Assembly: GCA_040326155.1 (NCBI GenBank)
Contig: JBEQLE010000053.1
Coordinates: 1-13,015 of the forward strand
DNA: 13,015 nucleotides
DNA from: Leptospirales bacterium
GTDB lineage: Bacteria; Spirochaetota; Leptospiria; Turneriellales; JAOUFE01
Direction of reading: 5' to 3'
This document shows, one piece after another, positions 427 through 13,015 of the stretch (position 1 is its first letter; every line of letters begins with the position of its first letter). The notes beneath the pieces were generated by a model, which was not told the origin of the DNA, ran no database searches, and saw only the letters and a list, made by a program, of their open reading frames with translations. The position numbers and the translations under genes are program-made.

Positions 427-1146
427 ATGAATGTATTTATTACCGGTGTCAGTCGCGGCCTGGGTTATGGTTTAGCTAAAACATTTCTAAAGCGAAATTA
501 CAAAGTATATGGAGTCGCCCGCTCTACCCCACCCCAGGATCTCTTCGATTTACCGGGGTTTCATTATCAGAGCTGTGACCTGCATAATTTTGAAAATATA
601 AAAACGGTCTTAGACGAACTCTTACCTACAGATGAAAATTTCCGATACTCCATTTTGAATGCAGGAATAATCGGCAAAGTTAATTCCATGAAAAACAGTT
701 CCCTTGGCGACTTAAAAGATGTGATGGATGTCAATGTCTGGAGCAATAAATTTATTCTCGATTATTTTCTGGAAAATTCAGTTCACACACAGACAATTAT
801 TGCGATCTCTTCAGGAGCTTCCGTCTCTGGAAATTATGGCTGGAACGGGTACTCTATTTCTAAGGCAGCTTTGAATATGATGGTCAGTCTCTACTCACAT
901 GAATTTACCGAACGCCAGATTTACTCTTTTGCTCCGGGTCTTATAGAAACATCGATGCAAGATTATATTGCAAACGAAGTCGACCTAATAGCTTTTCCAA
1001 CGATGCAACGGCTAATCGATGCCCGCGGAACCGAAATTATGCCAGCGCCGGAAACAGCGGCAGAAAAAATTATTGACTCCTTTAAAAAACTGGAATTGCT
1101 TCCCAGTGGTTCCTACGCTGATATTAGAAATCTAGATGTTGATTAA
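427..1146 (+). CDS. Short-chain dehydrogenase/reductase (SDR), sepiapterin/benzil-reductase-like
   Basis: Rossmann motif TGVSRGLG, LNAG, catalytic Ser in ISSGAS, YSISK (YxxxK), and APGLIETSMQ typical of the YueD/sepiapterin reductase-like subgroup. Confidence 0.92.
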   Translation: MNVFITGVSRGLGYGLAKTFLKRNYKVYGVARSTPPQDLFDLPGFHYQSCDLHNFENIKTVLDELLPTDENFRYSILNAGIIGKVNSMKNSSLGDLKDVMDVNVWSNKFILDYFLENSVHTQTIIAISSGASVSGNYGWNGYSISKAALNMMVSLYSHEFTERQIYSFAPGLIETSMQDYIANEVDLIAFPTMQRLIDARGTEIMPAPETAAEKIIDSFKKLELLPSGSYADIRNLDVD

Positions 1147-1148
1147 TT

Positions 1149-1973
1149 CTAAAGCATTTGTACGGAATATCGCATGAAGTCTTCAATTTCACGATCGGTG
1201 ACTTCGGGCAATACTCGTAATATATAAGTGTTGAATATTTTATCGTGTATTCCTCGACCCGATTTGCTAAATTGCATACTCAACAAAGTAAGAAATACAA
1301 ATGGAAATAGTTTAAATAGTCCCCGTAAAAAAGTTTTTCCTATACCGGGTATCGTGCCATCTTTGTTTACAATTATTATTCGGACTCTTCTGCGAATACG
1401 CGGAGCATGCTTGCCTTTTGTATTCAAATTCGATTCTTGATAGGCAATTAGAATTCGCCATCCAACCATAATCGCTAACAAACCGCCGATCAGTGGAATG
1501 GACATAAATGTTGTAAGAGCCTCGGGTATCTCCGGGTTCATCTCCATTAGAAAATTCTCTTGCCAGGTAATATAAGAATCGAATATTCCAATTTTTTTAA
1601 TAATACCTTGAACTACGGCGAGAGTTAAAAAAGCCCACCCTGCCAATAATGCACGTAACATATATTTTTCGTAAAAATAAGTCCAGACTCTCAAGTCTGT
1701 GGGGGCAAATTCAATCGCTGGTTCTGTCAGTTTTTCAAGATAGGGGGTTAGCTCTTTTATTTTTTCTTGATTATTTTCAAGTTTAAAAAAATGTATAATC
1801 TCAGAAACCTGTCGAAAATTCATTTTCTTAATCTCATCAATATGTAGATTACTCTCTTCGAGAATATCAACCGCTTCTTCGATTTGAACTGGCGCAAGAT
1901 TTGTAGTAGATACTTTTTTTACCCGTTTTTTCACAGGAGTTTTTTTAGATTTCACTTTTTTAGCTTCTGCCAT
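1149..1973 (-). CDS. RDD-family-like membrane protein with Lys-rich N-terminal extension
   Basis: About three hydrophobic segments. C-terminal 'IVNKDG...FLRGLFK...GRGIHDKIFNTYIL' matches the RDD pattern (xxDG...LR...RgLHDkiagTyV). Purine-rich RBS (AGGGGGG) upstream; overlaps the RND gene by 14 bp. Confidence 0.75.
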   Translation of the reverse strand: MAEAKKVKSKKTPVKKRVKKVSTTNLAPVQIEEAVDILEESNLHIDEIKKMNFRQVSEIIHFFKLENNQEKIKELTPYLEKLTEPAIEFAPTDLRVWTYFYEKYMLRALLAGWAFLTLAVVQGIIKKIGIFDSYITWQENFLMEMNPEIPEALTTFMSIPLIGGLLAIMVGWRILIAYQESNLNTKGKHAPRIRRRVRIIIVNKDGTIPGIGKTFLRGLFKLFPFVFLTLLSMQFSKSGRGIHDKIFNTYILRVLPEVTDREIEDFMRYSVQML

Positions 1974-4900
1974 TTTTAGATTTCCCCCCTAAAATATATT
2001 TATGGAATACATAACCTCGATCTTCCCAGATAGAATAGTAAGATGGAATTACAATCAAGGTAATTACCGTTGCAAACATTAATCCCCAGGCCATAGCCAA
2101 AGCCATCGGTTTCAGAAACGGATCGTTTCCACCAAAACCATAAGCCGTTGGTAATAGTCCAAAAACTGTTGTAATTGTAGTTAAAATTACAGGACGAAGG
2201 CGACTTAACCCTGCCTCAATAATCGAATCTCGTTTACTAAAACCAAGGTGGCGCATTTTATTAATAAAGTCCACAAACACAATGGAATCATTTACCACAA
2301 CTCCAATTAAGCCAACGATTCCAAGAGTAGCCATAAAACTGAGAACCAGGTCTCGGTCGAAAATCTTATGAACGAAAAATGCAATTGCTACGCCAATAAT
2401 ACCGAGCGGAATAACGATCATAATAACTCGCGGGTGACGAAGGTTGCCAAACAAGAGAACTAAAATTGCCCCAATCGCCAACAAGGCAATAAAGGCTGAT
2501 TGCACCAGTCCGCCCATAGATTCATTCGTGTCTTCCACCTCGCCTCCGGCGTTCAATGAGTACCCCGGATACTGTTTTAATTTAGATTCCATAATTCTCA
2601 AAATTTCTGCGTTGGCATCGACCGCACTGTTTTTCTTTTCATCGATATTTGCCTGCACCGTTATGGTCCGTTTTGAATCTTCGTGAGAAATTACATTAAT
2701 ACCAGGTTTTCTTTTAAACCCGGCAAGCTCATTAATGGAGACCAGGTTTCCCATGGTATTTCTTACCGTAACCTTTTGTAAAGATGAAAGATTGTTCCGT
2801 AATTTTTCAGGAAAGATCACCCGAATATCGATCTCTTCATCCACTTTTTTAATTGAGGTGGCAACATTTCCATCGAACGCGGTTTGTATGGTGGATGCAA
2901 TTTGCATAACAGAAACACCGGCGCGAGCTGCCCTTCTCTCATTTATTGTAACATGATATTCTTCTTTATCGGACTCCCAATTATCGCGAATATCGAATAC
3001 TCCACGAATGTTTGAAAGTTCAAGTTGTATAGTATCTGAAATTTCCCGCAGTGTTTTAAATTCGTCACCTCGAATTTGTATCGAGATTGGCTCGCCAATG
3101 GGTGGCCCGCCTCGCAACTCTTTAAACTGTAACTTTTCTAAAATGATGTTCCCCAGACTGGCAAAGGTAGGCAATTTGTTGTTGGTTGCCTTTTTTGCTA
3201 AAATTCCATTGGTACCAAAATAGTAGGTACCGGCGCCTGGCGCTTTCACTGTTTGTTGGATAATTCCTTTTATCTTTGTTGTATGTTCAATTTTGCCTGA
3301 TACAAGATTAAACAAGATCATCTTATTTACGGTCGATAACCAGAATCGGTTTTCACCAGATTTTTCCAGCCAATAAATCGGCTTTGCCGTTACCTCGTGA
3401 AATTGTAGAAATTTTTCTTGCTCTATGTCATATTGAATTAAACGACCGTCAAACGTACCAAACCAGATCGTTTTTCCATTATCAAAACTTTTAATATGTT
3501 CAATTCGAGCCAAACTCTCATATTCCCAGTTTGTTTCTTTCTGCTCTAAAAACCATTTTTTCGCTTTTGCCAGCCAGGGCTTCTCGGTGTTCACTTTTAA
3601 GGATTCTCGTTCAGATGCAGTAAGTATTGTCGGTTCTGCAATTACAGACTTAAAGTCCTTGTTCTCCGATAAAACGGTACGATCGACCGTTTCAACAATT
3701 CCTGTATCATTGAATTTCCAGGCTGCAACCTGGCCGGACTCAAAGTGAATTTTAACTAAGTTATTATCTATGTCGTATGTTATTTTTTCAAATGTTACAC
3801 CACTGTATTTTGCAAAACATTCCGTTTCAAAAATCTCCATATTGATTTGACATAAAACACCGGAATTAAGAGCAGCTAAAGCAAATCGCCGTTCCGGTTC
3901 AATTTTCACAAGGCCAGGTATTAAATCATCCGGTATTTGACTTATACCATATCGCCGGGGAATTGCATCCACTGTTTTTTTCAAATCGAGTTCGTCGCCT
4001 GTACCGATTCCAAAAAGTTTTTTGAACCAAGATACTTCTTCCAGGTTTGTGGCCCCCAATGAATATTCCCATATTTCAAAGGACCCTTTATCTGTTCCGA
4101 TAATTGCAGTTTTTGAATCGTTTAAAAACTCAATTTTGCTCACTTGCTCGTCACGGTATTTGGTCAGGTACTCCATCTCGCCGGTTTTAAGCTCCAGGGA
4201 GTACAACTCTCCTGAGTCAAAATAAATAACGGCAAACTCACCGGATGGTTCCATAGAGAAAATTAAGGGAACTTCATTGTCTCTGACTTTCTTTTGATCT
4301 ATAATATTACCTTTGTTCATGTCTATCGTAAAAAGAACATTTTCACCGGAATATACATAAAGAGTATTACCGGCAAGACCGCCGCCAGCAATAAAATGAG
4401 TATCCGGTATCGGTATTTTCTTTTGGCGGTTTAAACCTGAATAAACCAGGACCTCAGGCAGGTTATGTAAGACTATGGTCGATTTTTTATCTTGTGTAAT
4501 TTGAGTAAAAAGAACGGACTGCTTAGGATCAAGTTGTTGTTGTAAGAAAGCAAGTATCTGACGAGCTTTTCTCTCCCGGTTGGTTTCAGGTGATAAAAAA
4601 ACAGCAAGCATTGCGAAATTGTTTCCCCGTTTTACAAACGGGTCAGAAGGGTTCTCCTGGAGAATACCCACTCTGGTATTAAAACTATCAAGCTCCCCTT
4701 CGCGAAGATTTAAAACAGCGTCTTCATATGGCTGAATTCTTTTACCCATTTCTTCCAGGCTAATACCGTGGGTAGTTTCAGCTTTTATAAAAAAAGTATC
4801 GATATCGACTTTCGGAAACAGGCTAAAACCGGTGGCTTTAATCAGGCCAATGGCGACAAAAAACAGACCCATTATAAGCATAATAACCAGATAGCGATAA

Positions 4901-6501
4901 TTCAGAGCCTTTACTAAAATCTTTTTATACACCTTTTGTAAAAATGCAAATATTCGGTATTCCAGAGAACTTTTATTTTTTACAATTTCAGACAACTCTT
5001 TTCCGTTCGTGATGTCTAAAACGTGTGAAGGCAGTATAAAAAAGCTTTCGAACAAAGAGGCGCCCAGGGCTATAATTACGGCGGCAGGCATGGTCCATAT
5101 AAATTTACCCATAATGCCACCCATGAACATCAATGGCATAAAAGCGACCATGGTTGTTGTAACCGCAGCAATAACCGGCAATAACATCTCTTGTGCGCCA
5201 GTTACGGCAGCCTTAAGCGGTGGAACCCCTTTTTCTATTAAACGATATATATTTTCACCGACAACAATAGCGTCATCGACGATCATTCCCGAGACAATGA
5301 TAAGACCAAACATACTAATTAAATTTATGGAGATGCCGGTAAAACCCATGACTATAAAAGTAATGGCAAATGAAAATGGTATACCAAAAGCCACCATAAG
5401 TGCAACTCGCCATCCGAGAAAGAAGAAGAGAGAAGCAAGTACAAGTATAATACCAATTAAAACATTACCGCCAAGTACGCTTAAACGACGGCGAATAAAA
5501 AAGGAGATATCGTTCATGGTCGATATTTGCAACTGTGCTATTTCGGTCGGCTTTTCTTTTTCAAATTTGGCGATATCTTCTTTAACCCGATCGACAAGGT
5601 CTATGGCATCGGCCTTCTCTTTTTTTAATACGGTTAAAACAATGGCTTCTCGACCATTGGCTTTTTCAAGAACCGATTTTTCTTCAAAACTGTCTTTTAC
5701 ATAGGCAACATCGGAAATTCGAATTGCACCGCCATAATCATTGTATCGTAATATCACATCGTTTATTTCGCTGGCGTTTTCGAACTCTTGTACGGTACGA
5801 ATGTTGTACTCTTTGCCCCGTCCTTTAATCGTTCCACCGGGAAAGTTGAGATTTCTCGTCGCAAGAGCTGAAACAATTTCATCCGAAGAAATATTATAGT
5901 CATACATTTTAATCGGATCTACTTCAATGAAAATTTCTCGATCTCGGTAACCGCGTCTGGTAACGCTGGCGACCTCTTTTATTTGTTCAAGATTATCTTG
6001 CAAGGTTTTTGCAGCGTTTCTCAGCTGGTATTCCGTAAGCGGTTTTTTAGCTTCGGGGTCTGAATTCAAAGAGATTTCAATAATCGGTGTACGCGAAGAG
6101 GTAAGCTCGGCTACAATTGGGTCTTCAGCATCATCCGGAAGCTCTGTTTTTGCTCTGTCCGTCGCGTCGCGAATATCCTGCAGAACTTTCATTTTTTCAG
6201 TAATATTTGGCTCTAATGTTAAAATAACACCCGAACGACTGTCCAATGAAGTCGAGTTCATTTTCTTTACGCCTTCGACCTCTTTTAACTCTCGCTCAAT
6301 AGGAATGGTTACAAGTTTTTCAACCTCCGAGGGGGACGCCCCCGGATAAATAGTATTGATCATTACAATATCAAACTCTACTTTTGAAAATGCCTCTCGT
6401 TGCATGGAGGTAAAATAGTAGGCGCCCATGACGACAATTGCAATAGATACAAGATTGCCGAATATACTTCTGTGAATAAAATAATCGATTAGTTTACGCA
6501 T
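1960..6501 (-). CDS. RND-superfamily efflux permease (AcrB/AcrD/AcrF-like), 1513 aa, with ~460-aa WD40-like beta-propeller insertion
   Basis: N-term YPGASPSEVEKLVTIPIE, TM4 GMIVDDAIVVGENI, linker GGPPIGEPISIQIRG, TM10 GVVVNDSIVFVD, TM11 RLRPVILTTITTVFGLLP. Residues ~658-1118 are non-RND and beta-repeat-like. Start overlaps the TolC stop (TAATG). Confidence 0.95.
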   Translation of the reverse strand: MRKLIDYFIHRSIFGNLVSIAIVVMGAYYFTSMQREAFSKVEFDIVMINTIYPGASPSEVEKLVTIPIERELKEVEGVKKMNSTSLDSRSGVILTLEPNITEKMKVLQDIRDATDRAKTELPDDAEDPIVAELTSSRTPIIEISLNSDPEAKKPLTEYQLRNAAKTLQDNLEQIKEVASVTRRGYRDREIFIEVDPIKMYDYNISSDEIVSALATRNLNFPGGTIKGRGKEYNIRTVQEFENASEINDVILRYNDYGGAIRISDVAYVKDSFEEKSVLEKANGREAIVLTVLKKEKADAIDLVDRVKEDIAKFEKEKPTEIAQLQISTMNDISFFIRRRLSVLGGNVLIGIILVLASLFFFLGWRVALMVAFGIPFSFAITFIVMGFTGISINLISMFGLIIVSGMIVDDAIVVGENIYRLIEKGVPPLKAAVTGAQEMLLPVIAAVTTTMVAFMPLMFMGGIMGKFIWTMPAAVIIALGASLFESFFILPSHVLDITNGKELSEIVKNKSSLEYRIFAFLQKVYKKILVKALNYRYLVIMLIMGLFFVAIGLIKATGFSLFPKVDIDTFFIKAETTHGISLEEMGKRIQPYEDAVLNLREGELDSFNTRVGILQENPSDPFVKRGNNFAMLAVFLSPETNRERKARQILAFLQQQLDPKQSVLFTQITQDKKSTIVLHNLPEVLVYSGLNRQKKIPIPDTHFIAGGGLAGNTLYVYSGENVLFTIDMNKGNIIDQKKVRDNEVPLIFSMEPSGEFAVIYFDSGELYSLELKTGEMEYLTKYRDEQVSKIEFLNDSKTAIIGTDKGSFEIWEYSLGATNLEEVSWFKKLFGIGTGDELDLKKTVDAIPRRYGISQIPDDLIPGLVKIEPERRFALAALNSGVLCQINMEIFETECFAKYSGVTFEKITYDIDNNLVKIHFESGQVAAWKFNDTGIVETVDRTVLSENKDFKSVIAEPTILTASERESLKVNTEKPWLAKAKKWFLEQKETNWEYESLARIEHIKSFDNGKTIWFGTFDGRLIQYDIEQEKFLQFHEVTAKPIYWLEKSGENRFWLSTVNKMILFNLVSGKIEHTTKIKGIIQQTVKAPGAGTYYFGTNGILAKKATNNKLPTFASLGNIILEKLQFKELRGGPPIGEPISIQIRGDEFKTLREISDTIQLELSNIRGVFDIRDNWESDKEEYHVTINERRAARAGVSVMQIASTIQTAFDGNVATSIKKVDEEIDIRVIFPEKLRNNLSSLQKVTVRNTMGNLVSINELAGFKRKPGINVISHEDSKRTITVQANIDEKKNSAVDANAEILRIMESKLKQYPGYSLNAGGEVEDTNESMGGLVQSAFIALLAIGAILVLLFGNLRHPRVIMIVIPLGIIGVAIAFFVHKIFDRDLVLSFMATLGIVGLIGVVVNDSIVFVDFINKMRHLGFSKRDSIIEAGLSRLRPVILTTITTVFGLLPTAYGFGGNDPFLKPMALAMAWGLMFATVITLIVIPSYYSIWEDRGYVFHKYILGGKSKNGRS

Positions 6502-8069
6502 TACTTGACCTCGCTTAATAGCTCCTCTATATTAATTTTATACCTTTCGAATACTTCATTTTTTGCCAGATCGAACATTAAAAGATCGATATTAAAATTC
6601 ACCAACTCAACAAGTTCGGACTGCCGAGAAGCGATCATTAAGTCAAGAGCGTCTTTCACTCGGGCTGTACCAAAACGTCCTTTTCTGGCCTGAGACAAAA
6701 TACGCGAATAATACCTTTCGGCTTCTTTGCGATATTTACGTGTTTTAATTAACACATTATGTTGAGTGCGAACTTTATCAAGAGCGTCAAGAACGTCATC
6801 TCGTAGAACTTTTTGGAGTTGTTCCAGTTCTAGTCTTGCCTGTTTCAATTCATAATCGGCATTTCGAATCTTTGTGGCGGCTGAGGTATCCCCAAGAGGG
6901 TAACTTACCCGAACCCCGACACTCCAGGTGGGATAAGTAGCACCTAGAGTATCGCCAAAAGCGGTTCCAAAGTTTTTGTCTTGTCCCATCGTACTTAGTT
7001 CAAAAAAACCAACGATGGAAGGAAGAGCGTTATTTTTACTCATTTGCAAATTCAGGCGAGCCATCTCTATTTTTTTCAAAGCGTTATCATAATCTACCCT
7101 TTTTCTAAAAGCGGTTTCTAAAGCTTTTTCCGGGTCGAGTTCCGGCAGTACATCTACAAGTTCCGTTACACCCTCAATTTTAGTTTCGGGGGGCAGATTA
7201 ATCGTTCGCAAAAGTTTTCTGGTTGCAACAATTAATTCACGGTTGACTACTTCAAGTCTGCTTTCGGCCTGCGCAAGGGATGCATTTTGAAAACTTAATT
7301 CATACTTTTCTGAAAGCCCGAGCTTTATATTTCTAGCTACAATATTACGTAAATTTCGAGTAGAACTAACGGCAAGCTTCGCGTTCGTCAGACTGCCTTT
7401 AGCCACTACGACAGCCCAGTAATCGGCAAGAGCGTTAATGACAACGGAGGCAAGCTGGTTAATTAAGCTCTCTCGGGCCATTTGAGCTTCTGTTTTCATT
7501 TTTTTCTGATTCGTTAATTCATGAAATCCAAATGCATTTTTTAAAAGTTCCTGTTGAACCACAATAAAGAATACGGGCTTGTGATAAGCGGGGTCCTTGC
7601 TGCTAAAGCCGCTTATAGCTTTGTCATCACTATCGGACAGTGTTTCGGTAATTCCGGCGCGAACCATGGTCCCTGTGGCAAATAATTTTTGCAAGGCAAT
7701 CGTTGCTTTCATCTCGGTGCTGTTTGCTCCACCGAATGTGCTGGTCATTCCGCTTTCAGGCATTTGTTGATTTGTATATGCCACATCTCCTTCAATGGTC
7801 AGGGCATATCTGCTTAAAAAATTACGGTAAGCGGTATCGCTCATTAAAACATTATATATTTCTTTTCGAAGTGTCAGGCTGTTTTTTAAAACAAGTTTAA
7901 TCGCTTCTTCAAGCGAAAGATCGAGGTCGCCAATGGAAATACTGCCTTTTTCACCGGATTTTACTTCCTGGGCGCTCAGGTTTGATGAAATAGAAGATGT
8001 AAACGTCAATGTAAATACAAAAGAGAATAGAGTAGTAAATGATACCATCGATAGAAGTAGTTTTTTCAT
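6501..8069 (-). CDS. TolC-family outer membrane efflux protein
   Basis: Sec signal peptide (MKK + hydrophobic + NLSA/QE), LSLEEAIKLVLKNS start motif, long helical segments alternating with beta strands (PSIVGFFELS...WSVGVRVSYPL). GAGG RBS; ATGA overlap with the tetR stop; adjacent to an RND gene. Confidence 0.9.
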   Translation of the reverse strand: MKKLLLSMVSFTTLFSFVFTLTFTSSISSNLSAQEVKSGEKGSISIGDLDLSLEEAIKLVLKNSLTLRKEIYNVLMSDTAYRNFLSRYALTIEGDVAYTNQQMPESGMTSTFGGANSTEMKATIALQKLFATGTMVRAGITETLSDSDDKAISGFSSKDPAYHKPVFFIVVQQELLKNAFGFHELTNQKKMKTEAQMARESLINQLASVVINALADYWAVVVAKGSLTNAKLAVSSTRNLRNIVARNIKLGLSEKYELSFQNASLAQAESRLEVVNRELIVATRKLLRTINLPPETKIEGVTELVDVLPELDPEKALETAFRKRVDYDNALKKIEMARLNLQMSKNNALPSIVGFFELSTMGQDKNFGTAFGDTLGATYPTWSVGVRVSYPLGDTSAATKIRNADYELKQARLELEQLQKVLRDDVLDALDKVRTQHNVLIKTRKYRKEAERYYSRILSQARKGRFGTARVKDALDLMIASRQSELVELVNFNIDLLMFDLAKNEVFERYKINIEELLSEVK

Positions 8070-8785
8070 ATTGCCTCACAATAATTTTTTTTTAAGTTTT
8101 GTAACTCATGGTCCAGCAAATTTTTCACATTTTCAGGAATTTTTGGCAAGGTTACACTACGTGGAGCCAGAGATTTAAATACGTGATTGGTTAAATAATC
8201 AATTAGAACATTCTTGCCATTTTCTGGGTATAGTTTTTTCTGCATTGGCGAACCTTTGAAAAGATCGCGAGAGCGCATGTAGTGAACAATAGAAGAGATA
8301 ATCGTCCATACTTCGAAAATAGGATTTTCCGTTTCAAACTCTCCACTCTTGACACCTTCAATAATTACAGATTCAAGTCTTTCCATGGCCGGGGCAAAAA
8401 CTTCTTGAATTAAAACTCGTCCGTGATGATTACCTTCGGCCATGTCCCACGCCATCATCCTGTGAAACTCAGGGTCAAAACAATCGTAATGCATACTGAC
8501 GATGAAATATATAGATGAAGCAAGACTTTCAGACGGGGAAACGTCGACATCAGGTACACCCAATGGTAACTGCTCTGTCTGTGTACGGCCAACAACAAAA
8601 AACAGAACTTCACGATAAAGTTTTTCCTTCGTATCAAAGTAATAATGAATCATAGCCTTATTGGCTTTGGCGGTTTTAGCAATACTATCCATACGAGCAC
8701 CTGCAAAACCATTGCTTGCAAACTCTTTTTTAGCTGCGCGCAAAATTCGAATTTTAGTGCCTTTTTTATCCATATCCTGAGCCAT
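8066..8785 (-). CDS. TetR/AcrR-family transcriptional regulator
   Basis: HTH: RILRAAKKEFASNGFAGARMDSIAKTAKANKAMIHYYFDTKEKLY. Start uncertain (ATG at 8797, 8785 or 8773); 8785 chosen because 8797 lies inside the putative operator. Confidence 0.93.
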   Translation of the reverse strand: MAQDMDKKGTKIRILRAAKKEFASNGFAGARMDSIAKTAKANKAMIHYYFDTKEKLYREVLFFVVGRTQTEQLPLGVPDVDVSPSESLASSIYFIVSMHYDCFDPEFHRMMAWDMAEGNHHGRVLIQEVFAPAMERLESVIIEGVKSGEFETENPIFEVWTIISSIVHYMRSRDLFKGSPMQKKLYPENGKNVLIDYLTNHVFKSLAPRSVTLPKIPENVKNLLDHELQNLKKNYCEAI

Positions 8786-8791
8786 GAAACC

Positions 8792-8822
8792 AACCATTTA
8801 GTTTAACCATCTGGTTAGTCAA
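8792..8822 (-). promoter_or_regulatory. Putative tandem TetR operator with adjacent -35 element
   Basis: Perfect palindrome TAACCA-TC-TGGTTA (8804-8817) plus an adjacent imperfect copy AACCATTTAGTT (8792-8803). On the minus strand TTGACT (8822-8817) abuts it; the -10 is not canonical. Confidence 0.65.
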
Positions 8823-9117: not shown

Positions 9118-9155
9118 TTGACAAGATGTAAATATGTGATAATATTTGTATTACA
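9118..9155 (+). promoter_or_regulatory. Sigma70-type promoter and putative antitoxin operator of the TA module
   Basis: TTGACA (9118-9123), 16 bp, TAATAT (9140-9145) preceded by TGn. Palindrome TGTA-T-TACA (9147-9155) just upstream of ATG 9164. Confidence 0.65.
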
Positions 9156-9163
9156 GGTTACTT

Positions 9164-9418
9164 ATGGCAACTTCGATTAGATTACCCAAGGAAATTGAAG
9201 AGAAATTAGAATCAATTTCTCATTCTGAGCATCTTAGCAAATCTCAAATAATTAAGAATTCCTTGGCAGAGTACTTTGACAAACATTATTCTGAAAAAAA
9301 CTCTTATGAATTGGGAAAGAATTATTTTGGAAAATACGGTACCGGACAAAGTGATTTATCAACAAAAAGAAAAGAACATCTGAAGAAGATAATCGATGAA
9401 AAAATGTCTAGTCGATAG
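9164..9418 (+). CDS. Ribbon-helix-helix (CopG-like) antitoxin, VapB-type
   Basis: MATSIRLPKEIEEKLESISHSEHLSKSQIIKNSLAEYF fits the RHH pattern; C-terminal G..G..DLS motif. ATG at 9164 with AGGT upstream is preferred over TTG 9146. Overlaps the PIN gene by 23 bp. Confidence 0.88.
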   Translation: MATSIRLPKEIEEKLESISHSEHLSKSQIIKNSLAEYFDKHYSEKNSYELGKNYFGKYGTGQSDLSTKRKEHLKKIIDEKMSSR

Positions 9419-9794
9419 CGGCCCTTTAGTTGCGCTCTTTAATAATAATGAAGCTATAGATATTATTCAGAAACATGATTTACTGTTATTTACGACGTGG
9501 CCGGTTATAACTGAAGTCGCCTACCTACTCGGTAAAAACCGAAAAATCGTTCAGGATTTTCTTAATTGGACTTACGATGGTGGATTAAGATTATTAGACA
9601 TATCATTATCTGATCTAAACCGAATTATTCATTTGGTGACTAAATATTCGGACGTCCCGATGGATTTTGCAGATGCCAGTTTAGTGGCAATTTCCGAAAG
9701 GGAATCCTTGGACAATATTTTCTCCTTTGATAGTGACTTCTATATTTACCGTCACAAGAAGAAATCATTCAACAACATTTGGAACGACAATTAG
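9396..9794 (+). CDS. vapC: PIN-domain ribonuclease toxin (VapC family)
   Basis: LVDSGPLVAL (D7), TTWPVITE (E40), MDFADASLV (D93), IFSFDSDF (D112/D114) form the PIN acidic active-site set; directly downstream of an RHH gene. Confidence 0.92.
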   Translation: MKKCLVDSGPLVALFNNNEAIDIIQKHDLLLFTTWPVITEVAYLLGKNRKIVQDFLNWTYDGGLRLLDISLSDLNRIIHLVTKYSDVPMDFADASLVAISERESLDNIFSFDSDFYIYRHKKKSFNNIWNDN

Positions 9795-10135: not shown

Positions 10136-11071
10136 CTAATCGATTTCGCTGTAAATATAGTCTACTCGATAACCGATGTCGTCATAAGTGTACCATGTGG
10201 CGTCGACTCCCTGTGCGCCAAAATATTTTTCCTGGGAGATATGCCCGGCATCGTATGAATATTTTGCATAATCGAAGAGTACGTCGTCTGTGGTAAACCA
10301 CGTTGCGTCCACCCCGGATGCGCTATAATATTTTACTGAAGAGATCAGGTCATACTCATAAGAGTAATCAGAGTAATCAGCCTGGACATCGTCAGTAGTA
10401 AACCACGTTACGTCTACCCCGGATGCGTTGTAGCCGATAATTTGAGAGACTTTTCCGTTGCTTCCGTAGATAGATGTATCATAGGAGAGAACGTCATCAT
10501 CAGTGGTATACCATGTTGCGTCGACGCCTATCCCATTGTAGATGACTTCTTTTGTAACTTTATTCTTCGAATTATACGATAACCCAATGTACTGCCCAAT
10601 AAGAACGTCGTCTGCGGTGAACCAGAGAGCGTCGACTCCGGCTGCACTATAAGCGACCTTTCTTATTAATTTCCCCGATGAGTCGTAAATAAATTTCCCG
10701 TAGTCGGCGACGACATCGTCGCCGGTAAACCAGAAAGTATCGGCTCCGGCCCCGGTGAGGTGTGTGATAAACTGAACATTTCCTTTCGAATTTACAACAA
10801 AAGAGTTATAATCGAATACCACGTCATCGTCGGTAAACCAGTACCCGTCAGTACCGGGTCCCGTGTAATATTTTACCATGGAAAGTTGCGATATAACGTC
10901 ATATTCATAAAGTTCGTAACCAAGCACGGCACCGGTAGGAATATCATAGTATATCTTTTGTTCCAGGAGGTAGTCGGGATTACTAGAGGTCGAGAGGTCA
11001 ACCGTGGAACCGATACAGTTCATCGTGTTAAACCCCAAAATCATTGACAGAATTAGATATTTAATATTCAT
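10136..11071 (-). CDS. Putative lipoprotein (311 aa) with seven 35-37-aa repeats carrying G-x-D-x-x-W-[FY]-T-x-D-D
   Basis: ATG 11071 with AGAGGTG RBS (11082-11076); signal MNIKYLILSMILGFNTMN-C; seven clear tandem repeats with YD/RHS-like Tyr-rich strands. Confidence 0.85.
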   Translation of the reverse strand: MNIKYLILSMILGFNTMNCIGSTVDLSTSSNPDYLLEQKIYYDIPTGAVLGYELYEYDVISQLSMVKYYTGPGTDGYWFTDDDVVFDYNSFVVNSKGNVQFITHLTGAGADTFWFTGDDVVADYGKFIYDSSGKLIRKVAYSAAGVDALWFTADDVLIGQYIGLSYNSKNKVTKEVIYNGIGVDATWYTTDDDVLSYDTSIYGSNGKVSQIIGYNASGVDVTWFTTDDVQADYSDYSYEYDLISSVKYYSASGVDATWFTTDDVLFDYAKYSYDAGHISQEKYFGAQGVDATWYTYDDIGYRVDYIYSEID

Positions 11072-11128
11072 TAGGCACCTCTTTAGCATAAAAATATGTT
11101 TTACGGAAACAAACGACAATTAATTTAC

Positions 11129-11173: not shown

Positions 11174-13015
11174 CTACAACGGATAGACCTGGACATCAAC
11201 ATCTTGCATTTCGACCATTCCTTCGAGCGCACAGTTGGCGGCAGAAACGGTAGTCGTATAAGGAATATTATGCTGTAACGCGGCGAGACGAATTCCGAAA
11301 GCATCGTTGCGGGTTACAACATCGGTAGGAATATTGATTAGCAGGTCTACGCCACCGCTTTTAATTTTATCGACAATATTCCCAGAACCCTCATGAACCT
11401 TATTAACAGTCTCAACTTCAATACCCTTGTTTTTCATAAAGGCGGCGGTGTTCTTCGTTGCTAGAATTTTGTACCCGGTTTTGGAAGCGCGTAATAAAGA
11501 TTCAACAAAAAGTTCTTTTGTGGAGTCACTTACCGAAATAAAAATAGTTCCTTCGAGTGGTAGGTGGCCCCCGGACGCGGTCTGGGCTTTATAAAAAGCT
11601 TCGGCTGGTGTTTTGCCTATACCCATCACCTCACCTGTTGATTTCATTTCGGGACCAAGCATTGTATCTACACCAGAAAACTTTTTAAAAGGCAGTACAA
11701 CTTCTTTAATATAATATAACGGGGGGTTAAGATTCTCTTTTATTCCCAGCTCGCGAACGGGAATACCGCTCATAACTCTGGTGGCCTCTTTCGCCAGGGA
11801 AATACCCGTGGCCTTGGCGACAAAAGGAACCGTACGACTGGCTCTGGGGTTTACCTCTATAAGGTAAAGCTCATCTTTATAAATGGCATATTGAATATTT
11901 AGAAGCCCTATAACTTTTAACTCCAGGGCAATCTTCCTGGTGGCTTCTTTTATTTCGTTCATCATTTTGTCTGAAACACCGCGAGGGGGTAAAATACAGG
12001 CGCTGTCACCTGAATGGACTCCGGCCTCTTCAATGTGTTCCATAATACCGGCGATAAAAACATCTTTAGAATCACACAAAGCGTCGACATCGAGTTCGGT
12101 AGCGTCCATTAAAAACTGGTCAATTAAAGCGGGACGATTAGCACTAATTTCGGTCGTTTTTTGCATGTACTCACGAAGCTGGTCGGGAGTATGAACAATA
12201 CTCATGGCCCTGCCGCCAAGAACATAAGAGGGTCGAACCAGAATGGGGTATCCAATTTCTTCTGCCGCTTTGAACGCCTCGTCCAGAGAAGTGGCCATCG
12301 TACCATGGGGTTGTTTCAACGAAAGTTTGTTGATCATGTTAGAAAACAGTTCTCGGTCTTCAGCCAGGTTAATACTTTCATAGGAAGTTCCGAGTATAGG
12401 AACTCCGGCCTTGTGCAACCCTTCGGCCAGACGCAAAGGGGTTTGACCCCCAAACTGTAAAATAACACCCAGAACTTTACCGCTTTTCGATTCAACTTCG
12501 ACAATATTTAAAATATTTTCTAGAGTAAGTGGTTCAAAATAGAGACGGTCCGATGTGTCGTAATCGGTAGAAACGGTTTCAGGGTTGGAGTTTACCATTA
12601 TGCTCTCGATACCCATCTCTTGCAAAGCAAAAGAGGCGTGACAACAACAGTAGTCAAATTCAATACCTTGACCAATTCGATTCGGGCCCCCGCCTAAAAT
12701 AATAACTTTATTTTTATCTGAAACTTCCGCTTCACACTCTGTTTCCTGGGTGGAATACAAATAGGGAGTATACGACTCAAATTCAGCAGCGCAGGTATCG
12801 ACCCTTTTATAAACCGGTTTTAAACCGGCAATTTCAGAAGAGTTAAAAAGAAGCTCTTCGTTTTTTTTGATAATAGTAAAAATATTAGTTTGTATATTCA
12901 GGAACTCCCAGGAACCTCTTTCAGCCATAGCAAGTTCATTCACCTCTACATTAATTTCTATAGAGCCCATTAAAACGGCAATCTGGCGCGTACAATATCC
13001 CAATTGCTTCCCTTT
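11174..13015 (-). CDS. carB: Carbamoyl-phosphate synthase large subunit (5' part outside the window)
   Basis: PVYKRVDTCAAEF, ILGGGPNRIGQGIEFDYCCCH, NSNPETVSTDYDTSDRLYFEP, RPSYVLGGRAM, HIEEAGVHSGDS, EVNPRASRTVPF, LGPEMKSTGEVMG and a C-terminal MGS-like domain. The frame stays open to the window edge (KGKQLGY...), so TTG 13003 is not the true start. Confidence 0.99.
   Translation of the reverse strand, partial: KGKQLGYCTRQIAVLMGSIEINVEVNELAMAERGSWEFLNIQTNIFTIIKKNEELLFNSSEIAGLKPVYKRVDTCAAEFESYTPYLYSTQETECEAEVSDKNKVIILGGGPNRIGQGIEFDYCCCHASFALQEMGIESIMVNSNPETVSTDYDTSDRLYFEPLTLENILNIVEVESKSGKVLGVILQFGGQTPLRLAEGLHKAGVPILGTSYESINLAEDRELFSNMINKLSLKQPHGTMATSLDEAFKAAEEIGYPILVRPSYVLGGRAMSIVHTPDQLREYMQKTTEISANRPALIDQFLMDATELDVDALCDSKDVFIAGIMEHIEEAGVHSGDSACILPPRGVSDKMMNEIKEATRKIALELKVIGLLNIQYAIYKDELYLIEVNPRASRTVPFVAKATGISLAKEATRVMSGIPVRELGIKENLNPPLYYIKEVVLPFKKFSGVDTMLGPEMKSTGEVMGIGKTPAEAFYKAQTASGGHLPLEGTIFISVSDSTKELFVESLLRASKTGYKILATKNTAAFMKNKGIEVETVNKVHEGSGNIVDKIKSGGVDLLINIPTDVVTRNDAFGIRLAALQHNIPYTTTVSAANCALEGMVEMQDVDVQVYPL

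Follow-up and report, generated by a model that had tools for sequence, protein, structure and literature searches.

How does a drug-efflux-type permease accommodate a large folded domain at its periplasmic entry cleft, and what might such a domain do there? The question is raised by P0001, a resistance-nodulation-division (RND) permease of 1513 amino acids (aa) encoded in a 13,015-nt stretch of DNA (the window; positions below are window coordinates unless a locus is named) from the draft genome of a marine spirochaete (G000, 171 contigs). A sequence-only reading of the window had claimed that a WD40-like beta-propeller of ~460 aa is spliced into the second periplasmic loop of this permease. 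The analysis described here bears the claim out: the Pfam match to the RND family is split, two AlphaFold2 (AF2) models place a propeller in the gap, and structural superposition with VIA-align gives Z scores of 22-26. It also adds three features beyond that reading, namely an obligate partner gene of the RDD family, the absence of a gene for the periplasmic adaptor (membrane fusion protein, MFP), and an altered relay in transmembrane segment (TM) 10.

An AcrB-family permease interrupted between PC1 and PC2

The reading frame of P0001 is uninterrupted over 1513 aa (1960-6501, minus strand), as had been asserted. Pfam recognizes ACR_tran (PF00873) at 636.3 bits against a cut-off of 28, and the match is broken at aa 661/1138, the split that a genuine insertion had been expected to give. 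The first stretch, aa 5-661, covers positions 2-648 of the 1021 in the profile; the second, located at 2029-3090 by a genome-wide profile scan, covers positions 672-1019. The first RND part ends at D658 ('...QQQLD') and RND similarity resumes at L1121 with LEKLQFKELRGGPP, exactly the boundaries originally proposed (~aa 658 and 1121), and removal of the 462-aa insert from the 1513 aa leaves 1051 aa of RND where ~1050 had been predicted. A hydropathy scan of P0001 places hydrophobic segments at aa 12-31, 338-492, 528-563 and 1328-1492, with none in aa 32-337 or 564-1327, a pattern of two TM clusters and large periplasmic loops; between aa 563 and 1328 the scan finds no TM segment in the insert.

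The closest solved chains to P0001 are MdtB (E 1.4e-85) and MexK (E 6.6e-80). In the phmmer alignments the N-terminal match extends up to MdtB residue 664 and the C-terminal match starts from MexK residue 659, in agreement with the PC1/PC2 region in which the insertion had been placed. On AcrB, this break would fall where the porter subdomains PC1 and PC2 join, which is the floor of the periplasmic entry cleft and also the site of adaptor contact.

In the pump core the TM4 Asp-Asp pair, correctly reported as kept, is D409 D410, invariant in 12/12 family members (the window's copy and 11 relatives) and in 5/5 sequences of a second alignment, and the TM11 Arg-x-Arg motif is retained as R1434 and R1436, both invariant in the family. 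TM10 differs. Its motif GVVVNDSIV puts N1404, followed by D1405, at the site occupied by K in MdtB and R in MexK; both residues are invariant in the 12-member family, and the TM10 basic residue, which presumably corresponds to K940 in AcrB numbering, is absent. A pattern scan for GVVVNDSIV yielded at least 593 confirmed loci in Spirochaetota, Omnitrophota, Planctomycetota, Bdellovibrionota and others, and the motif marks a large AcrB-like RND subfamily that includes P0001. Eleven RND-permease models of NCBIfam match P0001, all below their cut-offs; unlike the named multidrug pumps, it falls far short of even the best of them (NF033617, 562.9 bits vs 1250). By every sequence test except the TM10 basic residue, P0001 classifies as an AcrB-family RND permease.

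Fold and anatomy of the insert

We modeled the insert with AF2 from an alignment of the 12 family members (model 1, aa 649-1133). The model is all-beta, built of four-strand repeats, with a mean pLDDT of 78.9 and a pTM of 0.67. When model 1 was compared with 48,161 PDB representatives by VIA-align, the matches were the WD40 domains of Lis1, WDR61, RACK1 and WDR5, together with E. coli YncE, at Z 22-24.5 over 263-296 residues and with a root-mean-square deviation (rmsd) of 3.0-3.5 Å for almost all rows. The matched chains span 280-1144 residues, and many are single WD40 domains of ~300 residues; domains of the Lis1, WDR61, RACK1 and WDR5 type are, we take it, seven-bladed. A second, independent model covering aa 530-1513 has the propeller at model residues 131-591 and gives Z 23-26, and over both models the rmsd is 2.9-3.6 Å for almost all rows. 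By Foldseek the insert model has the same type of repeat, with E values down to 3.7e-15; its TM-scores are just 0.2-0.3, because the top matches are tandem propellers. DSSP assigns 28-29 strands to the conserved parts of the insert model, which therefore correspond to seven blades. By superposition and strand count, the insert thus models as a seven-bladed propeller of WD40 type.

Family profiles recognize this fold less readily. Among Pfam families only Pep3_Vps18 passes on the insert (28 bits vs a cut-off of 23.1); PF00400 is unreported and other propeller families fall far below their cut-offs. An exhaustive HMMER search with the insert returned 89 matches at E<=1e-3, and a Pfam scan of 15 of these identified six RND proteins with split or partial ACR_tran, six WD40-repeat proteins and three Reg_prop proteins. 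The WD40 and Reg_prop proteins are reached by phmmer with the insert at E 3e-9 to 1e-3, and the Reg_prop-like matches arise from the half containing blades 5-7.

The blade-like units listed in the original reading lie on predicted blades (4063-4146, for example, is blade 4). Its estimate of the insert's size holds for the window's copy, which has 462 aa, and does not hold for the family. A profile built from the 11 relatives matches the window's insert in two pieces (E 1.9e-37 and 4.1e-33), with profile positions 1-177 falling on blades 1-4. Positions 104-177, which represent blades 3-4, have two matches in the insert, one at residues 97-173 and the other at residues 216-290; the second copy lies at ~aa 864-938 (3688-3912). 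This copy is part of a nested segment, 3526-4062, that is absent from 11/11 aligned relatives and lies outside the ring superposing on seven-bladed propellers. In the relatives the insert measures ~330-340 aa, enough for seven blades, and reaches 376 in G001. The conserved unit is accordingly a seven-bladed propeller of ~330-340 aa, and the 462 aa found here reflect a duplication of blades 3-4 plus a helical stretch.

A metagenomic relative, P0028 (1498 aa), carries two hydrophobic, TM-like stretches between blades 4 and 5 (alignment columns ~970-1060), in the same nested spot as the blade duplication of the window's copy. The position of these stretches is a hint that the blade 4-5 edge may face the inner membrane.

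Distribution, selection and origin

We searched 34 genomes of the order, the window's own and 33 others, with the insert profile at E<=1e-10. The insert is present in 17 of them, in 15 of 18 genera counting that of the window; the 16 carriers among the other 33 genomes have it at the same site, as the sequence-only reading had proposed looking for. It always lies within open frames of 1360-1523 aa or at contig ends. The profile search did not find it in genera g11 (0/14), g3 (0/2) or g18 (0/1, from a genome that is 54% complete). In a sample of 401 genomes of the phylum, 14 match the insert profile at E<=1e-5, and copies embedded in an RND occur only in this order (G000, G004, G005 and G008); in the other ten the matches are weak (E 2e-8 to 9e-6) and fall in frames of 399-1083 aa. 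In that sample 0/75 genomes of the Leptospira-like family have the insert. Six metagenomic RND proteins with split or partial ACR_tran (P0005, P0006, P0007, P0013, P0015 and P0028) emerged from the exhaustive representative search, and the four that were aligned (P0005, P0007, P0015 and P0028) each carry an insert at the same site.

Within this distribution the insert evolves under constraint. Between two congeneric genomes its dN/dS is 0.10, vs 0.05-0.07 for the core, and the insert is under purifying selection across most of this one order of the class Leptospiria. Its identity to the window's copy across the order is 20-28%, vs 47-57% for the whole protein, and 10 columns are invariant among 12 sequences, mostly G, Y or P.

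We built a FastTree phylogeny of 82 rows, omitting seven fragments shorter than 1000 aa and three duplicate loci and dropping columns filled to less than 60%, the insert among them. In this tree a single clade, with support 100, holds all 12 propeller RNDs. Its sister group consists of 16 propeller-less Spirochaetota pumps, and the Leptospira clade branches next. Since the propeller pumps form a single clade, one gain suffices, and the tree indicates that the propeller was inserted once. Propeller-less relatives have a linker of ~45 aa (Leptospira) or ~100 aa (L050, L051) at the insertion site, which therefore appears to tolerate insertions.

Several candidate carriers were set aside. In L050 and L051, whose frames extend 1333-1350 aa from stop to stop, the ~100 aa that occupy the site are not propeller sequence. 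In Planctomycetia, Omnitrophota and Oligoflexales, tblastn gave spans long enough to suggest inserts; these lie in frames of normal length (1028-1130 aa) and have no insert-profile match. A word-index search with the insert returned only the query itself, because the relatives are too divergent to share 5-mers, a locus search with the single insert found no relative, and the ESM Atlas gave only generic WD40 clusters, with a best score of 0.81, below the meaningful level.

A dedicated RDD partner

On the minus strand the gene order is TetR regulator, TolC-like channel, RND permease and RDD-family membrane protein (P0004), and the four genes overlap or abut. Searched with a profile of the RDD protein, the 34 genomes divide just as they do for the propeller: the 17 propeller carriers have one copy each, always directly downstream of the pump, and none was found in the other 17 genomes of the order. 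The propeller-RDD pairing is strict, with the qualification that these genomes are kin and not independent, and that the absences amount perhaps to two or three losses.

P0004 itself is a weak match to Pfam RDD (PF06271; 17 bits, E 0.007, cut-off 24.1 bits). Ten of the orthologues in the 11 relatives score 20-45 bits, nine of them at or above the cut-off, and that of L018 has no match; all 12 copies align, with 16 invariant columns. A hydropathy scan gives P0004 three hydrophobic segments, and its conserved C-terminal tail is predicted by charge count to be periplasmic. A complex prediction for propeller and RDD protein scored 0.00 in two runs carried out without controls, and counts neither for nor against binding.

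The immediate propeller-less relatives lack these surroundings. At seven sister-clade loci (14 flanking proteins scanned) and two Leptospira loci we found no neighbour of the OEP (TolC-like channel), RDD, TetR or MFP type. Because no RDD neighbour occurs at these loci, the propeller and its RDD partner appear to have arrived together. Four of the seven sister-clade loci (L046, L069, L073 and L112) have a gene for a response-regulator/SpoIIE phosphatase divergently upstream of the RND.

The outer-membrane channel and the missing adaptor

A gene of the OEP family is present in 32 of the 34 genomes (E<=1e-10), including those without a propeller RND, and nearly all have one clear full-length copy. 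Of the 17 genomes with a propeller RND, 9 have this gene beside the pump, 4 have it unlinked, and in 3 contig ends cut the comparison short. In G011 this query found no orthologue of the window's channel P0002; the other OEP genes of that genome lie elsewhere. In genus g4 (G004, G010) an MMPL-family transporter of 813-824 aa stands directly upstream of the propeller pump, in the place of the OEP gene (L022, 3066-5540, plus strand; L023, 10484-12925, minus strand).

None of the 12 propeller RND loci has an MFP neighbour. Genome-wide, the models TIGR01730, PF16576 and PF13437 gave nothing above their cut-offs in G005 (99% complete, with the propeller pump as its sole ACR_tran gene), G011 (a single contig) or G016 (93% complete); sub-cut-off matches reached only 19.6 bits in G005 and 17.4 bits in G016. 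An MFP is thus undetected in three of the five relatives checked, where a very divergent adaptor may have escaped the models. The window's genome has one clear MFP, which adjoins a different RND on contig C66, and in G014 the sole MFP abuts a canonical RND. Of the components of a tripartite efflux system, the locus has the outer-membrane factor gene and has no adaptor gene.

Elsewhere in the window's genome, on contig C33 (locus L040, 5004-9643, minus strand), an RND of 1040 aa is followed by an OEP protein of 506 aa, with no detectable MFP and with a CHAT-domain protein upstream. Adaptor-less RND-OEP pairs may be common in this order.

Possible roles of the propeller

We favour, tentatively and with less than even confidence, a reading of the propeller as a platform for protein docking and gating that works with the RDD subunit on the membrane-proximal side of the PC1/PC2 cleft. 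The propeller would lie next to the cleft, at the periplasmic surface of the inner membrane and at the canonical docking place of the adaptor. There it and the RDD subunit, with its predicted periplasmic tail, would together form an additional site of entry or assembly for an amphiphilic small molecule. The pump would move this substrate, presumably the amphiphile sensed by the TetR regulator, by means of the proton gradient and, where a channel is present, would hand it to the TolC-like protein. The TetR and TolC-like genes look like those of a small-molecule or amphiphile efflux operon, and the original suggestion of a capture module for large substrates (peptide, protein or glycan) found no support. 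We do not regard the propeller as catalytic.

Several observations weigh against the docking platform. The placement of the propeller relative to cleft and membrane derives from sequence topology only, and the topology of the RDD protein from a hydropathy and charge count. No conserved surface patch was identified on the propeller in the family alignments, and the residues conserved in it (G, Y, F and WD-like strand motifs) look structural. The channel is found order-wide, is a neighbour of the propeller RND in just 9 of the 17 carriers, and has no orthologue found in G011. Finally, this pump is not alone in lacking an MFP: the RND-OEP pair on C33 and the canonical-length RNDs of G011 and G016 are also without a detectable one.

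A serious contender, which we nevertheless think unlikely, is that the propeller binds the transported substrate or its carrier and feeds or occludes the PC1/PC2 cleft. The insertion coincides with the PC1-to-PC2 connection, purifying selection acts on the insert, and the second half of the propeller resembles the Reg_prop repeats found in periplasmic sensor domains of hybrid two-component systems. Such Reg_prop-bearing sensor domains bind ligands. Against this reading, the 10 invariant columns include no standout conserved pocket residues, and blade number and loops differ between lineages. Regulation by TetR suggests that the operon handles small hydrophobic substrates, and canonical RNDs take these up with no extra domain; nothing indicates a peptide, protein or glycan.

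It is improbable, in our estimation, that the propeller is a built-in replacement for the adaptor, with three propellers per trimer coupling the pump to a TolC-like channel in the stead of an MFP. Such a role would account for an operon without an MFP gene, for the failure to detect one in three of five relatives, for the OEP gene directly upstream in 9 of 17 genomes, and for an insertion at the adaptor contact of canonical pumps. It fits poorly with G011, where propeller RND and RDD gene occur and the orthologous OEP was not found, and with the four genomes in which the OEP is unlinked. Because other RNDs of these genomes also lack an MFP, yet have no propeller, the propeller need not replace an adaptor. 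Judged from the known geometry of AcrB, a domain ~45 Å wide is also unlikely to reach the channel tip, because its linkers at the base of the porter domain are short.

More doubtful still is a combined version, in which the fused propeller and the dedicated RDD subunit jointly replace the adaptor, either by coupling the pump to the TolC-like channel or by forming a lateral substrate gate at the level of the membrane. If true, this would be an adaptor-free build of the RND export machine, in a class of pumps (AcrB-type) for which the adaptor is thought indispensable.

We give less credence again to the propeller as a passenger that the pump tolerates at a site prone to insertions, where its effect would be no more than generally stabilising or steric. 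Variable linkers of ~45-100 aa occupy the same site in propeller-less relatives, the window's copy has tolerated a two-blade duplication and P0028 a hydrophobic hairpin, and the insert diverges faster than the core. Against a passenger stand the retention of the whole insert in 14 of the order's 17 other genera, its dN/dS of 0.10, and its strict co-occurrence with a dedicated partner gene.

An assembly chimera or mis-joined frame, a concern for a window from a 171-contig draft, can be dismissed because 16 further genomes, one of them a single contig and some with the locus on megabase contigs, have the same architecture, and GC content is unchanged across the insert junctions. No RNA run was among the public sequencing runs listed for this DNA; two DNA runs share 6-10% of its sequence words and give contigs at 2981-3183 (203 nt) and 3372-3556 that are 98-99% identical to it. 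The first of these crosses the C-terminal junction, one of the two boundaries at which the original reading asked for read coverage, and may come from the source sample; outside the two contigs the remaining stretch has no cover, which proves nothing.

Relation to known systems

P0001 resembles AcrB-, MexB- and MdtB-type (HAE1-like) pumps in its full-length ACR_tran domain, its two large periplasmic loops, the TM4 Asp-Asp pair and the TM11 Arg-x-Arg motif, and its operon, like theirs, includes a TolC-like channel and a TetR regulator. In contrast to them, it has a 462-aa propeller between PC1 and PC2, an RDD-family partner and no adaptor gene, and in TM10 it has N1404 and then D1405 where MdtB has K and MexK has R. 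Closer to P0001 are the propeller-less GVVVNDSIV pumps of Leptospira, other Spirochaetota, Omnitrophota, Planctomycetota and Bdellovibrionota, which share the TM10 motif and the lack of an adjacent adaptor and are 37-54% identical to P0001 over the C-terminal half (best tblastn segment). They differ in having only a linker of ~45-100 aa at the site and in being orphan genes without OEP, RDD or TetR neighbours (nine loci).

Periplasmic loops of RND proteins are known to accept extra domains, as in the head domain of SecDF, the periplasmic extensions of MmpL proteins and the ectodomains of NPC1 and Patched; to our knowledge, none of these is a beta-propeller at PC1/PC2 of an AcrB-like pump. The nearest functional analogy that we found is MmpL3, which is reported to interact with the beta-propeller protein MSMEG_5308/Rv1057, a protein that may stabilise the TtfA-MmpL3 interaction (PMC10171966). 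MmpL3 shares with P0001 its membership in the RND superfamily, the lack of an MFP and a beta-propeller accessory (PMC10171966). Unlike P0001, it is an MMPL-family transporter (PF03176) whose propeller is a protein of its own, and we cite it as an analogy and a precedent in trans, not as shared membership.

The original reading knew of no characterised RND with this architecture, and our search agrees: full-text searches, which did not reach subscription journals or database architecture pages, turned up neither a propeller-bearing RND permease nor an RND paired with an RDD protein. Only one paper, a preprint (bioRxiv 10.1101/2024.03.18.585509), contains RND, WD40 and AcrB together, and the passages in question concern unrelated contexts.

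Organization of the window

The features of the operon and of the insert are collected in Table 1. The tetR stop overlaps the start of the OEP gene, and a TetR gene occupies the same position in loci L013, L014, L015 and L018. P0002 has a single N-terminal hydrophobic segment (aa 3-23, hydropathy scan). The palindrome upstream of tetR may be the operator of the regulator. The hairpin beyond the RDD gene is likely to mark the end of the operon; the window holds nine such terminator-like hairpins vs 6.8 expected in shuffles.

Table 1. Positions of the efflux operon, of the parts of P0001 and of the flanking signals in the window.
Feature	Position	Strand	Basis or remark
50-nt palindrome, 25-nt arms, no loop	8861..8910		arms 92% complementary; 64 nt upstream of tetR start
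TetR-family regulator P0003, 243 aa, first in operon	8066..8797	-	Pfam TetR_N E 1.3e-11, TetR_C_29 E 1.7e-6
TolC-like outer-membrane channel P0002, OEP family, 522 aa	6501..8069	-	Pfam OEP E 7e-19, TIGR01844 E 2.4e-14
Propeller-bearing RND permease P0001, 1513 aa	1960..6501	-	ACR_tran 636 bits, two stretches
RND part 1, aa 1-658: TM1, first periplasmic loop, TM2-7, PC1 part of second loop	4528..6501	-	ACR_tran profile 2-648
Insert, aa 659-1120, 462 aa: periplasmic WD40-type beta-propeller (modeled)	3142..4527	-	AF2 models, VIA Z 22-26
Blades 1-4, aa 663-813	4063..4515	-	DSSP strands 15-49, 56-90, 97-133, 139-165; pLDDT 84-94 per 10-residue block
Nested segment, aa 814-992: linker, duplicated blades 3-4, helical stretch	3526..4062	-	lineage-specific; pLDDT 51-74
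Blades 5-7, aa 993-1103	3193..3525	-	DSSP strands 345-377, 382-417, 422-455; pLDDT 83-93
Closing strand, aa 1112-1115	3157..3168	-	DSSP strand 464-467 of model
RND part 2, aa 1121-1513: PC2/DC part of second loop, TM8-12	1963..3141	-	ACR_tran profile 672-1019
RDD-family membrane protein P0004, 274 aa	1149..1973	-	Pfam RDD E 0.007; overlaps RND stop by 14 nt
Terminator-like hairpin just 3' of RDD gene	1089..1107	-	consensus match only

Upstream of the operon, P0094 (327 aa, 10136-11119, minus strand) has a hydrophobic N-terminus and ~7 tandem repeats of ~37 aa with the motif G.D..WFT.DD. We considered it as a hidden adaptor and rejected it, since it is a repeat protein without a family match in Pfam or NCBIfam. 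Between P0094 and the efflux operon, a small open reading frame at 9146-9418 (plus strand) overlaps a PIN-domain frame at 9396-9794 (plus strand; Pfam PIN E 4e-6), a pair that looks like a VapBC-type toxin-antitoxin system. The segment at 11174-13015 (minus strand) is the C-terminal part of the large chain of carbamoyl-phosphate synthase, which runs off the end of the window and is ordinary.

Implications

Few membrane machines are as well studied as AcrB-type pumps, in which the PC1/PC2 cleft serves as the entrance for substrates and also as the docking site of the adaptor. In the pumps described here a folded domain of 35-50 kDa is conserved at that cleft, there is no adaptor gene, and a fixed partner comes from the uncharacterised RDD family. 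The order thus offers a natural experiment on the extent to which a domain in cis can stand in for the adaptor, on what RDD proteins do, a family that gains a concrete and testable partner, and on how the RND pumps of spirochaetes, many of them apparently without adaptors, reach the outer membrane.

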